Notes: a model not told the origin generated them from the sequence alone. A stretch of 38,235 bases of DNA from a virus (IMGVR_UViG_2563366949_000011), one strand, 5' to 3'. Counted from the first letter of the stretch, positions 18,944 through 24,824 are shown. Numbers and translations: made by a program.

Positions 18944-20359
18944 TCAACCTACACCACAAGGAATTGAGTAACTGGAATAGTCGGGTTGCGCAGCCGACTC
19001 CGGGCAATGCATACACATCATCAGCGCATCAGCCAGGTTAGGAGATGGAATACCGAGCTTCTGCTTCATTTCGACCTTAGTCATTAGCTCCAGCTTCCCG
19101 TTGTTATTGAATTTGCGCTGAATCTGCGTCAATTCTGCAAACAGCTTCTCCAGCATCTTCTCGCCTATCGCTTCTTTGTCGAAGCTCAGCATGTCGTCGG
19201 GGTCTGCATACTCACCGTAGACAACCGCCCGATATGTCAGATACAGCCTGTCAGCCAGCGCGTAATAGAATTGTGCTCGCTTATTGCGGAACACATCGCC
19301 AATAGTGCGAACGTTGTCACCCTGTACGACTTCATCAGCCCATGCTCCGGCTTGATACGGTGCATCTTCATCGAATGGCGATTCGCTGCCCTTGAACATC
19401 GTGGCGGTGATTTTCTTGCCGGAAAACGCTTCCGTTGTCTGTCTGCGTAGCCCGGCACCAACACCATCACCATCCCACAGGTAATGGTCAGCGCCGTCTT
19501 CAATCGCCAGCGAAGTAGCCCAGTCAGCACCCTCGTTGATGTCCATCAGCAGACCTTCGGCAATGCGCTTAACTACCGAACCGTGACGCGATGCATAACC
19601 TTTAGCATCTGGCCCTGTATCTGATGGGTCATGCGCAGAGACAACAGCGCCTTTCGCTTTCCATCCGAGTTTCTTGTGCGCATCGGTTGCGGCTTCAAGC
19701 CATTCACGTTTGATAATTGCCATATCACTTGCGCTCACTGGCTCACCAAGCCAGATGTGACGATACAGTGTCGGATTTCTGCGTTTACACTCTTCCATCT
19801 CCAGACGGAGAACTTCAGGAAAGTGCGGGTTGTCGGTGTAGTTCACCGTCAACAGGCAAATATCATCAGGAGGATTTACGACGAATCGCTGATAGGTATC
19901 GTCGAGTATGTTCTTCGGGTTAAAGCTCACCCATATTTCAGAGAACGGCTTACGGATGGTTGGTATCAGGATATCCCATGATTCCTTCGTTACCGCTTCC
20001 GCTTCTTCCACCCAGCAGATATCAATACCTTCGAGCGATTTAATCTTCGTCGGGTTGTTTTTGATGCCGTAGAACATGAATTCAGCATTCGTTCCGAGAT
20101 GACGAATCATTGAACGCTGAATTTCAAACTCAGCCGAATATCCTTCACGCTCGATGGTGTCTTCAAGCAGCCGGATTACCGAATCGCTGATACTGTTTTG
20201 CAGTTCACGAGCGCAAAGAATACGCACTGGCTGACGACGCGCCGCTTCAACAAGCAGCCTCGCAATTGCCCATGATTTACCGCTACCTCGACCGCCTTTG
20301 GCGACTTTGTAGCGATGCGCCTCAATGAACGGTTCAAAGATAGGATTAATCGAGGTCAT
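18944..20359 (-). CDS. Terminase large subunit
   Basis: 471 aa; Walker A motif GGRGSGKS near the N-terminus; gene order TerS-TerL-portal. Confidence 0.9.
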   Translation of the reverse strand: MTSINPIFEPFIEAHRYKVAKGGRGSGKSWAIARLLVEAARRQPVRILCARELQNSISDSVIRLLEDTIEREGYSAEFEIQRSMIRHLGTNAEFMFYGIKNNPTKIKSLEGIDICWVEEAEAVTKESWDILIPTIRKPFSEIWVSFNPKNILDDTYQRFVVNPPDDICLLTVNYTDNPHFPEVLRLEMEECKRRNPTLYRHIWLGEPVSASDMAIIKREWLEAATDAHKKLGWKAKGAVVSAHDPSDTGPDAKGYASRHGSVVKRIAEGLLMDINEGADWATSLAIEDGADHYLWDGDGVGAGLRRQTTEAFSGKKITATMFKGSESPFDEDAPYQAGAWADEVVQGDNVRTIGDVFRNKRAQFYYALADRLYLTYRAVVYGEYADPDDMLSFDKEAIGEKMLEKLFAELTQIQRKFNNNGKLELMTKVEMKQKLGIPSPNLADALMMCMHCPESAAQPDYSSYSIPCGVG

Positions 20360-20796
20360 TTTCCGAACAGAGTGCTCATCGGTGATGTTTCAATCTGAAT
20401 TGCGCCGCCGTCTTTGCCTGTTAGCTCGTGATCAACCTTGTCGCGCCATTTATCCTTCTGTCGGTTCTTAAGCCAGAAGATGGCGGCAGTTGTATCAGGC
20501 GGGTAATACTTCTCAAGCGGAGTTTCGACAATTCTGTTTTCAATAACACGAATATCGATGTCTGGAGCCACGAAGCCCATAGCGCGTTGATAAAGACGGT
20601 CACTAACTTCTGCATCAGCGACGGCCTTACCCTTTTTTATGGACTCCGAAAACTCAGGATAATCAAGCTTCCACTTGTTAATAGTTGACTCACTGACTTC
20701 GAAGAAATCAGCAAGCTCTGCATCGGTGTAGCCCAGCAAGCACAGTTTGCGTGCCTGTTCGGCATACGCCTCTTGATACTTTGTTGGGCGCGCCAT
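20356..20796 (-). CDS. Terminase small subunit (Sf6 gp1-like)
   Basis: 146 aa; C-terminus GKDGGAIQIETSPMSTLFGK matches my recollection of the Sf6 small terminase; overlaps the TerL start. Confidence 0.8.
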   Translation of the reverse strand: MARPTKYQEAYAEQARKLCLLGYTDAELADFFEVSESTINKWKLDYPEFSESIKKGKAVADAEVSDRLYQRAMGFVAPDIDIRVIENRIVETPLEKYYPPDTTAAIFWLKNRQKDKWRDKVDHELTGKDGGAIQIETSPMSTLFGK

Positions 20797-20798
20797 GT

Positions 20799-21041
20799 TT
20801 ATGCTCCGGTGGTGAACAGGTCTAACGCTTCCTTCGATTTACGCACCGCTTCGATAGTGCGGGTCGTGATATCTGAATTAGCGCCGCCTGACTGGAAGTG
20901 AATTTTGAATAGCTCAAGCTTCAGTTCGTCAGTGCCGATGAATTGAAATGCTTCTTCTGCGGCTGCGTTCTGGTTCATGACCAGCTTGTAAATCTCTAAC
21001 TGGAATTTCTGTTCTTCAGTCATGGGAATAATCTCTGCCAT
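20799..21041 (-). CDS. Hypothetical protein upstream of the terminase genes
   Basis: 80 aa ATG-initiated ORF, co-oriented and tightly packed with TerS. Confidence 0.5.
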   Translation of the reverse strand: MAEIIPMTEEQKFQLEIYKLVMNQNAAAEEAFQFIGTDELKLELFKIHFQSGGANSDITTRTIEAVRKSKEALDLFTTGA

Positions 21042-21144: not shown

Positions 21145-21483
21145 CTACTGTTCGCTTAGCTTCTGCTTCAGCAAGTAACCTTCGAGCATCCAGATTTTGT
21201 TTACAGCATTTTGCCGGGCAATCTTCCGACCAATTTCTGCATCAAAGTTTTCCGGGCTTGCACAGGCGCTCTCTCCGGTGACGGTGAAGCCATTTTGTAG
21301 AGTCAATACACAAAATGTCAGCAGAGCCAAACTGTCGTGATAGTCATCGCCAGTTGCAATAGCTCCATCAGCAGCAGTGAAGTACGTTTCCGCAAGAATA
21401 ATGCTTTCGATATGGTCTGGCGTAACGCGCGGGGCGGTTTTGCCTTTCTCAACGATTTCTTTTTCGATTTGCTGGTCGTTCAT
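21145..21483 (-). CDS. Hypothetical phage protein
   Basis: 112 aa ATG-initiated ORF between the moron and the terminase module; no family assigned with confidence. Confidence 0.5.
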   Translation of the reverse strand: MNDQQIEKEIVEKGKTAPRVTPDHIESIILAETYFTAADGAIATGDDYHDSLALLTFCVLTLQNGFTVTGESACASPENFDAEIGRKIARQNAVNKIWMLEGYLLKQKLSEQ

Positions 21484-21661
21484 AATTATGACCCTGTAGA
21501 GTAGTTGCTTGATTAGGATGTCTTTCCATCAGTCCGCCACCACAAAGAATCTTTTTTGCCATAAGGCAGGAGGTTCATCTTTCAGTGGCTGCCAGTGTTA
21601 TTTCCCCACTTTCTGGCTTGGGTTGTTTCGCTGTACTGCCGTTAATTGATGAGTCCGGGGA

Positions 21662-22147
21662 TTATTTCAGTTCGTTACCAGGCATTTCTTTTAGCTCTTT
21701 CAAATGACAACGATTGAGACTAAACCACTCCCCGTGCGACCTATAGTTGTAATATTTTTGGTGCAATTTGGTTTCAAGCTCTCTATCGGCCGGAATCTTT
21801 GCAATTAGATTTAGCTTCCCACCACTCATGCGAGATATCTCTGAAATTCGTTTATTAACCCTGCGACTAAACCCTATTTTTGTTAGCCCACTATCTTCAG
21901 CATGCAGAACGTACACATATGATTTTTGCGAAGCACTGGGTGCGACTTTGTTGTAATTAATCATGTCAAACATGAAGCCTTGCTTTAGCAAAGTTTCAAA
22001 AAAGATAGAATTAACACACCCATTCCTTCTCAGCTCTGCACTTAGCTTGTCAATTTCCTCTATGATGTCGCCAGACCCCTTTCCACTTATAAGAAAATCT
22101 TGGTACATGCGACCAATTCTTGAGGTAATTTCAACAAAGTTGTTCAT
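21662..22147 (-). CDS. T5orf172 (GIY-YIG-like) domain protein, moron between the lysis cassette and the terminase module
   Basis: 161 aa; C-terminal half YVYVLHAEDSGLTKIGFSRRVNKRISEI...LHQKYYNYRSHGEWFSL fits the T5orf172 signature (VYIL...KIG.T...EWF). Region is visibly AT-rich. Confidence 0.6.
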   Translation of the reverse strand: MNNFVEITSRIGRMYQDFLISGKGSGDIIEEIDKLSAELRRNGCVNSIFFETLLKQGFMFDMINYNKVAPSASQKSYVYVLHAEDSGLTKIGFSRRVNKRISEISRMSGGKLNLIAKIPADRELETKLHQKYYNYRSHGEWFSLNRCHLKELKEMPGNELK

Positions 22148-22293
22148 AGCGTTTACCTTTTAGAAAGATGAGCCTGTTCGCACAGAAAAGCCGTCCCCGA
22201 GATGGTCGCCACCATATACGGCAATTCTCAGGCTCAGCTTTCTGAAAGACTCGGGATTGTTACGCGCTGCGATGCGCGGTTTACTGCAGATGT

Positions 22294-22317
22294 AAAAAAG
22301 CCCCGCAAATGCGAGGC
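22294..22317 (-). terminator. Putative rho-independent terminator downstream of the lysis cassette
   Basis: Imperfect hairpin GCCCCGCA-AA-TGCGAGGC at 22300-22317 preceded on the + strand by AAAAAA (22294-22299), a U-run in minus-strand sense. Confidence 0.4.
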
Positions 22318-22491
22318 TAAATCCTGGTATTTGTAATGACTGGCTCTTATCTCAACGCAGCCCCTTACCGCGCGCCAGATGCTCAATATCAAGCATCAGC
22401 AATGAGATGTTTAATCTGGATTCACTCCAGAAGTGATCACCACCCTGTCTACAGAGCCAGATGTGAAGGATGATGAGTAAAATTATCGCTA

Positions 22492-22929
22492 TCATCGAAG
22501 GCATTGCGTCCTGATGTACTCCTGCAGGTAGTTAACCTGCGCGGTTATCCTGTCGATTCCACTTCGGAGACGGTAATAATTGAGTTCAGCATCTGCTGTA
22601 AGTCTTGGGTTTTCTCCATCGCCCATGCTGCTGGCTCCGGTCGTTGACTTTGCACAGGTGGCGGCGACTTGCAGGCGCTTACGCCCAGCAGAAACATCAG
22701 CACGGAGACTTTCGATAGTCGCGTTAGCATCAGCAAGCTCCTTTGTGTATCTTGCGTCGAGTTCTGCTACATCACGTTGACGCTTCCGCATATCAGCGAT
22801 GATGGATGTGGCTTTATCGCGCTGCTCTTTGTAGGCGATTGCATTATCACGGTAATGATTAACAGCCCATGACAGGCAGACGATGATGCAAATAATCAGA
22901 GCGGAGATAATCGCGGTGACTCTGCTCAT
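22492..22929 (-). CDS. Rz: Rz i-spanin
   Basis: 145 aa with an N-terminal membrane anchor and coiled-coil body; follows the endolysin with overlapping start/stop as in lambda. Confidence 0.85.
22545..22730 (-). CDS. Rz1: Rz1 o-spanin lipoprotein, embedded in Rz in another frame
   Basis: ATG at 22730; [20 protein letters not shown] with a lipobox-like VSAC followed by the proline-rich [13 protein letters not shown]. Confidence 0.7.
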
Positions 22930-23402
22930 ACCTCAATCTCTCTGACCGTTCCGCCAGCCTCTTTGAATTTTGCAATCAGGTTGTCAGCCTTATGCTCGAA
23001 CTGACCATAACCAGCGCCCGGCAGTGAAGCCCAGATATTGCTGCAACGGTCGATTGCCTGACGAATATCACCGCGGTCAATCATCGGTAAAGCGCCACGC
23101 TCTTTAATCTGCTGCAATGCCACAGCGTCCTGACTTTTCGGAGAGAAGTCTTTCAGACCAAGCTGCTTACGGTAGGCATCCCACCAACGGGAAAGAAGCT
23201 GGTAGCGTCCGGCGGCTGTTGATTTGAGTTTTGGGTTTAGCGTGACAAGCTTGCGAGGGTGATCGGAGTAATCAGTAAATAGCTCTCCGCCTACAATGAC
23301 GTCATAACCATGATTTCTGGTTTTCTGCCGTCCGTTATCAGTTCCCTCTGACCACGCCAGCATATCGAGGAACGCCTTACGTTGATTATTGATTTCCACC
23401 AT
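22926..23402 (-). CDS. R: Endolysin, lambda R-type lytic transglycosylase
   Basis: 158 aa; [49 protein letters not shown] matches my recollection of lambda R. Confidence 0.9.
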
Positions 23403-23709
23403 CTTCTACTCCGGCTTTTTTAGCAGCGAAGCGTTTGATAAGCGAACCAATCGAGTCAGTACCGATGTAGCCGATGAACACGCTCGTTATATAAGCGAGA
23501 TTGCTACTTAGTCCGGCGAAGTCGAGAAGGTCACGAATGAACCAGGCGATAATGGCGCACATCGTTGCGTCGATTACTGTTTTTGTAAACGCACCGCCAT
23601 TATATCTGCCGCGAAGGTACGCCATTGCAAACGCAAGGATTGCCCCGATGCCTTGTTCCTTTGCCGCGAGAATGGCGGCTAACAGGTCATGTTTTTCTGG
23701 CATCTTCAT
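23386..23709 (-). CDS. S: Holin, lambda S-type (class I, dual-start)
   Basis: 107 aa; [39 protein letters not shown]... matches my recollection of lambda S107 almost residue for residue. Confidence 0.9.
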
Positions 23710-23828
23710 GTCTTACCCCCAATAAGGGGATTTGCTCTATTTAATTAGGAATAAGGTCGATTACTGATAGAACAAATCCAGGCTACTGTGTTTAGTAATC
23801 AGATTTGTTCGTGACCGATATGCACGGG

Positions 23829-23863
23829 CAAAACGGCATGAGGTTGTTAGCGCAACCTCATGC
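23829..23863 (-). terminator. Candidate late-leader terminator (tR'-like) between Q and the holin
   Basis: Perfect 12-bp stem GGCATGAGGTTG/CAACCTCATGCC with 6-nt loop at 23834-23863, followed in minus-strand sense by GUUUU (23829-23833). Confidence 0.35.
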
Positions 23864-24305
23864 CACCCGCTTTCACGAAGGTCATGTGTAGAAGGCCGCA
23901 GCATAACTATCACTGATGAATTCAGGATAGCCAGTGGCTACGGCTCAGGTTGGGTTGTGGCGGTCGGTGCTGAACTCCGACTTAATGACGATAGGCGTGT
24001 ACCGACGCCTCGTTTTACTTCCTCCGCTTTCACGGCTTCACCCTAGACCAGCTTTACGAAATCCTCGTAAACCTAACCGCGGCAGATATGACCGGCACGG
24101 TGTGCCATATCACGGACCGGCGGGTGTCTCGTTCACCTGATTAACGCATCAGCCTGCGTATTCACCACAACGATAAGAGTACTGCGCGGCACCTTTCACC
24201 AATTCCGCGAGGTCTGCGGGTTCAATGCTCTTACCTGTTGTGCAAACAAAAAAGCCACCGTTGCAACTTAAGAGTCACTAACGGCAGCTTACCTTCTAAT
24301 TATGG

Positions 24306-24824
24306 CTAAATGGATAATTGCATGTCAAGGTTTTTAACAGCAACATGCTTAACTTTCTCAACACGTTTACGCATTTTGAAAGCATTTTGCATTGGCTGGT
24401 ATAAAACAAATAATGACGCTTTCAGGATGTCGTCAATTTCGTTTCTACAGGTTGCCAGTGAAGGTTTTCTCCATCCCTCGCCACCACGTCCACACATCTT
24501 GCGTGGCTTTGCAGTCGCGTGATAGTAGGATGCAATTGCTCGCTTAGATGAACCATGAGCGTAGTAGCTGAGGAGGATGCCAAAGGCTTTCTTGTCAATG
24601 TACATGACGGAATCAACGACCTGAGAAATCAACATTCCATCATCATCATTACACATTGGCCTTGTCATAATTCTTCCCGGCTCTACGCTCTCCATGAACT
24701 TCGCTATTACGCTGCTCATGCGCTTTTCCAGACGACCTGAATAAACCCATGCGCCCCACAGTTCAAGCCAGCCATTCAGCCACTCGTGCTGCTCTTTGGT
24801 GAGGTTTAGTTCTCTTATGCTCAT
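24306..24824 (-). CDS. Late antiterminator Q (phage 21 / QuuD-like family)
   Basis: 172 aa; WLELWGAWVYSG...TRPMCNDDDGMLI...SYYAHG follows the pattern I recall for E. coli QuuD (ERWGAWAA...RPQCCDDDAM...DYYVVG); sits between ninH and the late leader. Confidence 0.7.
   Translation of the reverse strand: MSIRELNLTKEQHEWLNGWLELWGAWVYSGRLEKRMSSVIAKFMESVEPGRIMTRPMCNDDDGMLISQVVDSVMYIDKKAFGILLSYYAHGSSKRAIASYYHATAKPRKMCGRGGEGWRKPSLATCRNEIDDILKASLFVLYQPMQNAFKMRKRVEKVKHVAVKNLDMQLSI

Follow-up and report, generated by a model that had tools for sequence, protein, structure and literature searches.

A T5orf172-domain gene of a P22-like prophage is an exchangeable cassette behind a shared terminator and structured leader

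The viral sequence IMGVR_UViG_2563366949_000011, a 38,235-nucleotide (nt) stretch that we refer to as the window, is a P22-like (Lederbergvirus-type) prophage of the CUS-3/Sf6-like kind with its late genes on the minus strand. Between its lysis and terminase genes lies an intact open reading frame (ORF) of 161 amino acids (21662..22147, minus strand), which an earlier reading made from the sequence alone, with no strand given, had described as an AT-rich T5orf172-domain moron. Here, we find that this gene is an exchangeable cassette in a hotspot with common flanks, not a self-contained moron, and that its two-domain product joins an N-terminal module, which we call X, to a T5orf172/MUG113 domain. 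The slot that it occupies is a well-bounded lambdoid exchange site whose occupants, nuclease, Rha, KilA-N and immune-sponge genes, substitute for each other; a common terminator and structured leader stand before the first three. The gene itself was already catalogued and is an ordinary accessory gene of a known family; two points are modestly new, namely that X links the nuclease to KilA-N cassettes and that the slot has a structured, covarying leader. As for what the protein does, the explanation we favor, at somewhat short of an even chance, is that it is a late, tightly limited competition or homing-like DNA endonuclease with a part in intergenomic conflict.

The limits of the slot can be read from a comparison with phage CUS-3, which is 99.3-99.7% identical to the window at 21517-21664 and 22139-24450 and has a Rha-ORF11CD3 gene (ABQ88404.1) in between. 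The replacement is exact, from start codon to stop codon: flanks, terminator, leader hairpin and ribosome-binding site are identical to those of the window, whereas the coding sequence is unrelated and encodes a Rha DNA-binding protein, not a nuclease. HK106 carries a 31%-identical T5orf172 homologue within the same flanks, and in HK97, mEp234 and HK022 the slot is taken by a KilA-N-P63C gene together with a small ORF. For this KilA-N-P63C plus X pair, BLAST aligns only the terminator-proximal ~47 nt, and the remaining leader appears only in a MAFFT alignment. In Huey, the slot holds a Tad2-like gene and the match is restricted to the terminator and the Acb4-side sequence. Comparing these occupants, we find that the slot alternates between Rha-ORF11CD3, KilA-N-P63C plus X, and X-T5orf172. 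The domains T5orf172, KilA-N, Bro-N, Rha, P63C and ORF11CD3 reportedly make up one domain-shuffling network of viral DNA-binding proteins, as set out by Iyer, Koonin and Aravind in 2002, whom the Pfam descriptions name as their source, and the gene belongs with this network by its shared modules and by a genomic niche in common with KilA-N, Bro-N, Rha and T5orf172 genes.

On the downstream side, 145 nt (21517..21661, strand not assigned) are 96-99% identical in CUS-3, epsilon34, NCTC11121 and HK106 and are kept regardless of the slot gene. The epsilon34 annotation treats part of this sequence as left over from the beginning of ST64T orf118; the sequence serves as the downstream recombination flank. 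The unit 21517-22527 as a whole is 98.6-99.6% identical in Escherichia coli NCTC11121 and E. coli W, where the lysis genes beside it are ~93% identical and where, in E. coli W, the terminase is of an unrelated type. Four metagenomic homologues of the gene (~60% identity) are likewise placed directly after a spanin gene and ahead of the terminase, in phages whose holin, endolysin, spanin, Q and terminase are all non-homologous. The same terminator and leader are clearly recognizable at three of these four, and at the fourth (L016) only in the MAFFT alignment.

The gene is a minority occupant of this common site. Its protein is 100% identical to gp68 of epsilon34, gp64 of g341c and a protein of phage NM-3, all Salmonella phages (DNA 98.3-98.7%), and is labelled 'GIY-YIG nuclease family protein' in RefSeq (WP_001058931.1). 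We found no functional study of gp68, and the epsilon34 genome paper is silent on the gene. Out of 369 phage records matching the region, only three phages (five database records) carry it. Among 5426 complete E. coli genomes it occurs in 58, at ≥98.8% identity and with one chromosomal copy each; the upstream flank is present in part in 2189 of these genomes and in full in 414, and the 58 carriers are among those 414. In every occurrence the gene follows the lysis cassette, so that, as with homing genes, its presence is sporadic and its locus fixed. Because 58 carriers stand against 414 genomes with the full flank, the gene is not a core function, which agrees with the earlier view that it is no lysis or packaging component.

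Its composition is also foreign, with a G+C content of 0.391 as against 0.471 window-wide, placing the ORF among the lowest 1.4% of 486-nt windows, and a G+C at third codon positions of 0.40 where neighboring genes have 0.49-0.56. Homologues in other phages likewise lie 4-9 G+C points under their surroundings. The AT-rich island with 340-bp flanks that the sequence-only reading had drawn shrinks accordingly: the dip is limited to the ORF itself, the flanks are at 0.46-0.50, and the 344 nt between Rz and the gene are occupied by a conserved 50-residue ORF and a rho-independent terminator.

No other strong terminator occurs on the coding strand; this one (22318..22299, minus strand; an 8-bp stem with six G-C pairs, then a T run) comes after the lysis cassette and before the T5orf172 gene, and the annotations of epsilon34 and HK106 also give it as a terminator. 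The terminator-like hairpin previously placed behind the gene is therefore to be sought on its other side: in the interval that separates the stop codon from the gene that follows (21661-21484), we found no coding-strand terminator-like site. Nor did we find a sigma-70-like promoter on the coding strand at 22130-22360, even at 8/12 matches. With no promoter found, a terminator upstream and none downstream, the gene rides the Q-dependent late operon, inside which it lies in each context examined. For the same reasons, and because the terminator and leader are shared with the CUS-3 Rha gene that replaces it, the moron label fails in its strict sense. What survives of that label is extra low-G+C DNA separating genes that stand side by side in relatives, as in Sf6, whose slot is short (114 bp vs 687 bp in the window, 21643-22329) and without terminator and leader; what does not is a promoter and a downstream terminator of the gene's own.

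These observations also bear on whether the gene serves defense in the lysogen, as the mention of defense contexts in the sequence-only reading implied. In such a lysogenic-conversion gene, the prophage-made nuclease would cut or abort superinfecting heterologous phages, and foreign composition, sporadic distribution and a weak match in PADLOC-DB v2 to the candidate system PDC-S57 (E 4e-4) all fit. However, the PADLOC matches (the other is PDC-M64B, E 0.03) are both weak and to the GIY-YIG core only, and an NCBIfam search gave zero matches and hence no curated defense family. In addition, even a scan at relaxed stringency found no promoter from the upstream terminator to the ATG, the downstream terminator was not found, the operon is a Q-dependent late one, and the leader is predicted to sequester the Shine-Dalgarno sequence. 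We thus consider a defense role in the lysogen very unlikely.

The predicted sequestration follows from the leader. Together with the terminator, two hairpins make up a three-part leader ahead of the gene (22156-22318, minus strand): a short G+C hairpin, CGCGC-ATCGCA-GCGCG (22263..22278, minus strand), kept in 10 of the 10 leaders compared, and a long hairpin of ~95 nt (22156..22249, minus strand), in which seven leaders show covariation. The 150-nt leader is conserved well above neutral expectation, and its fold has a minimum free energy of -66.6 kcal/mol (z -3.8), with none of 200 shuffles as stable. Across the seven leaders, which are 65-99% identical, 89.8% of cells are paired, as compared with 43-54% when the partners are slid, and two-sided changes occur at 17 pairs, where sliding leaves 2-6; not one of 500 shuffles came up to these figures. 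G-U pairs are abundant, favoring a coding-strand RNA over a DNA cruciform or an antisense RNA. In the long hairpin, the predicted partner of the 5' arm (22248..22229) is the 3' arm (22176..22157), which takes in the AAGG Shine-Dalgarno sequence (22159..22156), with the Shine-Dalgarno region opposite an upstream CUUUC at the base. The ribosome-binding site earlier credited to the gene does exist, as this AAGG 7 nt ahead of the ATG, but it is one that is predicted to be paired.

The same hairpin stands ahead of the CUS-3 Rha gene. HK97-type leaders, which precede KilA-N genes, retain the terminator together with the short hairpin and, of the long hairpin, the outer stem (z -4.4), and they differ in the inner register. 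As these leaders blurred the inner register when aligned, we claim Shine-Dalgarno sequestration only for T5orf172 and Rha-type leaders. In relatives, the three-part leader is found in loci L003 (2163-2347), L007 (2246-2430), L008 (5890-6077), L009 (5816-6008), L015 (4820-5008), L016 (4815-5008) and L014 (988-1182). Rfam has no family for it, giving only sub-threshold matches driven by the terminator.

A small upstream ORF of 20 codons (MVATISGTAFLCEQAHLSKR; 22153..22215, minus strand) has its start in the hairpin's apical part and its stop 5 nt ahead of the main ATG. All seven leaders have a similarly placed ORF, which either ends within the span from 10 nt ahead of the ATG to 1 nt past it or continues in frame as part of the main ORF; the stop and start overlap as ATGA in L009, L015 and L016, and the in-frame arrangement is seen in CUS-3 and L008. 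Since the encoded peptide is not conserved, at most the act of translation matters, and the upstream ORF may reflect either translational coupling or chance.

Turning to the protein, we find that a T5orf172/MUG113 domain, of the GIY-YIG fold and intact in its core, makes up the C-terminal 85 residues. The earlier assignment of a T5orf172 signature is borne out by hidden Markov model searches, which match PF10544 at residues 77-154 (21686..21919, minus strand; E 1.1e-9, 39.2 bits, gathering cut-off 20) and MUG113 (PF13455) at residues 90-154 (E 4.2e-13, 50.1 bits, gathering cut-off 22.3); the GEWFSL motif is at residues 139-144. PHROG 4284 matches across the full 161 residues (E 1.4e-75). An AlphaFold model made with 17 family members as input (predicted local distance difference test, pLDDT, 93) has an N-terminal three-helix bundle and a C-terminal beta-beta-alpha-beta-alpha-beta domain, the alpha/beta fold of GIY-YIG enzymes in which helices flank a three-stranded sheet; its closest structural matches are Slx1-type structure-specific GIY-YIG nucleases. 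Nine residues are unchanged in 51 relatives (Y79, K90, G92, R100, E125, H129, E140, W141 and F142), and this set includes the Tyr, Arg and Glu on which GIY-YIG catalysis would depend. We assigned residues to catalytic roles by analogy with Odn and I-TevI, not by superposition. On this analogy, the 161-residue protein is predicted to be an active DNA endonuclease, and its family has a precedent in Odn of phage ICP1, a proven T5orf172 nuclease that the E180A substitution, at the corresponding Glu, inactivates (PMC8263062). An exhaustive HMMER search returned 5717 proteins with the T5orf172 domain, of which about a dozen representatives have the full two-domain architecture. One apparent distant homologue, P0014, was excluded as a chimera of an Rz fragment and the C-terminus of the T5orf172 protein.

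The N-terminal extension, put previously at about 65 residues of unknown function, does comprise ~70 residues outside the Pfam domain matches, but it is not an orphan: it is a module that recurs in the slot. Module X (residues 1-70; 21938..22147, minus strand) is acidic, with an isoelectric point (pI) of 5.2, and forms a bundle of three helices (3-21, 25-41 and 47-68); the acidity (pI ~5) holds for 16 of 17 family members, and the C-terminal domain is basic. Its structural matches are generic helical bundles, and a Pfam search with 12 N-domains at E values up to 10 gave no match in any. Being acidic, without a Pfam match and with generic bundle matches only, X is unlikely to be a sequence-reading DNA-binding head, and the 161-residue protein has no sequence-specific DNA-binding domain joined to its nuclease. 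By contrast with the Pfam result, eight of the 12 N-domains match PHROG 875 (best E 1.7e-13), and hhalign of X against mEp234 gp59 and a Klebsiella phage protein gives a probability of 98.5% (E ~1e-15). By these profile comparisons, X is homologous to stand-alone proteins of ~85 residues (PHROG 875). The link was obtained through PHROG profiles and one more divergent family member as query; a second divergent N-domain query found nothing, tblastn of the window's N-domain against phages found only itself, and a profile search of a large protein collection with the N-domains alone returned one truncated copy.

The stand-alone X proteins are encoded directly 3' of KilA-N-P63C genes in HK97, mEp234 and related phages (L011 1792-2049; L014 1904-2137; L013 2486-2746), and in HK97-like phages they sit in the same post-Rz slot. 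They are widespread in Enterobacteriaceae prophages, without annotation and without a Pfam family, and consist of an acidic helical body with a strongly basic C-terminal tail, which in the fusion is replaced by the basic nuclease domain. Thus HK97 (gp73 and HK97p61) and mEp234 (gp58/gp59) resemble the window in the post-Rz slot, the terminator and a small ORF homologous to X, and differ from it in that their X is separate, has the basic tail and is partnered by KilA-N, whereas in the window X is fused to the nuclease and the KilA-N gene is absent. Elsewhere in the window we sought Rha, KilA-N, Tad2 and stand-alone X genes and found none. A database member of the ~85-residue family, P0204, is fused to an ORF11CD3 domain. 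Separately, residues 17-56 (window 21980-22099) align with a designed pentatricopeptide-repeat consensus, e.g. DFLISGKGSGDIIEEIDKLSAELRRNGCVNS. We rejected homology to these repeats (E 3e-6 in a search of Protein Data Bank sequences), as a single repeat contributes just ~5 bits and eight identical copies swell the sum; the match is probably a generic helical-hairpin resemblance. Kinship of the N-domain with the Sequestin sponge family PF21825 was dropped on the strength of the Pfam search.

If the slot's occupants are functional equivalents, then the protein may be a regulator or host-takeover factor like Rha and KilA-N, with T5orf172 acting mainly in DNA binding, X as effector or partner, and cleavage dispensable. 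The gene is indeed allelic with Rha-ORF11CD3 behind the same leader and with KilA-N-P63C plus X cassettes behind a recognizably related one, X is common to the KilA-N pairs and the 161-residue protein, and the domains reportedly belong to one shuffling network of viral DNA-binding proteins. The GIY-YIG catalytic residues, however, are unchanged in the 51 diverse relatives, as purifying selection on catalysis would give, and the sole T5orf172 protein tested biochemically is a nuclease. On balance, a regulatory role seems unlikely.

We return to the preferred model, in which the protein is a late competition or homing-like endonuclease. Here, transcription would come only from Q-modified polymerase passing the post-lysis terminator, that is, during late lytic growth and not in the lysogen. 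Translation would be restrained by the leader hairpin that pairs with the Shine-Dalgarno sequence, a restraint possibly lifted by translation of the upstream ORF or by RNA processing. The protein would act as an oligomer assembled or targeted through X and not through a sequence-reading DNA-binding domain, and its target would be non-self DNA: that of a competing lambdoid phage or prophage lacking the cassette, of a satellite, or of the host. The resulting homing-endonuclease-like or competition advantage would account for the near-identical spread of the cassette over different phage backbones.

The arrangement has a counterpart in T-even phages. Expression of their free-standing endonuclease genes, as known from work on I-TevI and mobE, is typically held down by upstream terminators and by hairpins that hide the ribosome-binding site. 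The terminator and hidden ribosome-binding site of the window resemble these limits, and they also fit a toxic product. There are differences, however. In the GIY-YIG enzymes I-TevI and Seg, the nuclease domain is N-terminal and a long DNA-binding domain follows it; the window protein has the reverse domain order and no evident DNA-binding domain. Moreover, its regulatory leader belongs to the slot and not to the nuclease gene, unlike in the T-even genes. If the leader is functional, it would be a simple example of the translational metering of toxic cargo within a late operon.

The T5orf172 genes of ICP1 offer a second comparison. T5orf172 has been treated as a homing-endonuclease family, often close to terminase genes (PMC10448857). 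Like Odn (Gp88) and its relatives, the window protein has a C-terminal T5orf172 domain with conserved Arg and Glu behind a different N-terminal module, and like the ICP1 genes, its gene is accessory, variably present and near packaging genes. In contrast, the ICP1 proteins are much larger, with Zn-finger (CapR, DUF723, DUF4397) or RepA_N domains in place of a 70-residue acidic bundle, and ICP1 has many paralogues where the window gene has one copy per genome. If the nuclease is active and selective, then T5orf172 competition or homing nucleases would extend from lytic vibriophages to temperate enterobacterial phages, and targeting without a DNA-binding domain would be demonstrated.

Several points weigh against the endonuclease model. 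Of the proposed ICP1 T5orf172 homing endonucleases, 87% carry Zn-finger domains, and those proposed so far nearly all have Zn-finger or RepA_N DNA-binding domains (PMC10448857); the 161-residue protein has neither, and the model does not account for its target specificity. The Rha allele of CUS-3 is accompanied by the same flanks as the nuclease allele, and because the same flanks and leader thus also carry non-nuclease genes, ordinary flank recombination suffices for the spread of the cassette. The gene is single-copy in each genome, with no paralogue expansion. Our choice between E125 and E140 as the putative catalytic Glu is made by analogy. Finally, the promoter scan covered sigma-70 consensus sites only.

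The DNA next to the cassette suggests a further possibility. The neighboring gene (21145-21483, minus strand) encodes a 112-residue protein of PF13876 (N4 gp49/Sf6 gp66; E 1.8e-34), the Acb4 family of nucleotide sponges that act against cyclic-oligonucleotide-based antiphage signaling (CBASS), and shows ~88% identity with the corresponding genes of Sf6 (gene 66) and Huey. Its cassette (21146-21516) is an exact 371-bp insertion that is absent from CUS-3, epsilon34 and NCTC11121, and it is separate from, and independent of, the T5orf172 cassette. Phages epsilon34 (gp68) and g341c (gp64), in which the gene comes, as in the window, behind Rz, a gp67-type ORF and the terminator, have DUF2560 next downstream, whereas the window has the Acb4-family cassette in between. 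In Huey, the slot (L004 997-1497) holds the Tad2-like gene (PF11195, an anti-Thoeris sponge) and then an Acb4-family gene. With its Acb4-family member, this is a neighborhood where counter-defense genes accumulate, and the post-lysis junction doubles as a counter-defense island in some P22-like phages. The sequence-only reading was thus right to see a foreign accessory gene at a junction with varied cargo, counter-defense families included.

The T5orf172 protein could in principle be a counter-defense effector in its own right, with X binding a host or satellite protein and the nuclease destroying the associated DNA, as Odn does against PLE, an element resembling phage-inducible chromosomal islands. 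In favor are the Acb4 neighbor and the Tad2-like gene of Huey, the precedent of Odn as a T5orf172 nuclease retargeted by a borrowed domain, and the nature of X as a borrowed or shared module. This remains guilt by association, however: the usual occupants of the exact slot, Rha and KilA-N, are not known as anti-defense genes, X relatives were detected only in the phage stand-alone family and not among host or satellite proteins, and late expression would be unusual, though not excluded. We judge this effector role decidedly unlikely. An idea that combines several of these elements is that X, elsewhere the partner of KilA-N-P63C proteins in this slot of rival lambdoid phages, anchors the nuclease to a KilA-N-type complex of the rival or to some other protein, making an Odn-type weapon that cuts rival DNA late in mixed infection, and that the terminator and leader, present at least in part in >400 E. 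coli prophages before Rha, T5orf172 and, in related form, KilA-N genes, are an undescribed riboregulator metering toxic late cargo. We offer this combination as a long shot.

A late, Q-dependent nuclease gene immediately before the terminase genes might instead help replication or packaging, as a structure-specific enzyme that, like T4 endonuclease VII or Slx1 in its mode of action, trims concatemer branches ahead of headful packaging. Besides expression and position, the Slx1-type top structural matches point this way, as does the packaging HNH nuclease that HK97-like phages hold in the same region. Nevertheless, most close relatives that package normally lack the gene, it is swappable with non-nuclease genes, and carrier relatives (in whose nin regions, as distinct from the window's own nin ORFs, this was seen) already encode NinG and/or RusA. 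A packaging helper is thus highly improbable.

For orientation, the late genes around the cassette run, on the minus strand throughout, from the Q antiterminator (24824..24306) through holin (23709..23386), endolysin (23402..22926), Rz (22929..22492) and Rz1 (22736..22545) to the 50-residue ORF of the Sf6 gp65/epsilon34 gp67 type (22504..22352), which overlaps the end of Rz and lies within the upstream flank. After the T5orf172 gene (22147..21662) and the PF13876 gene (21483..21145) come the DUF2560 gene (21041..20799) and the small (20796..20356) and large (20359..18944) terminase genes. Among the phages with ~60% homologues, two carry HNH_3 (PF13392) genes just upstream of Q, at L015 1437-2069 (after ninG) and L016 2678-3070; these are possible free-standing homing endonucleases.

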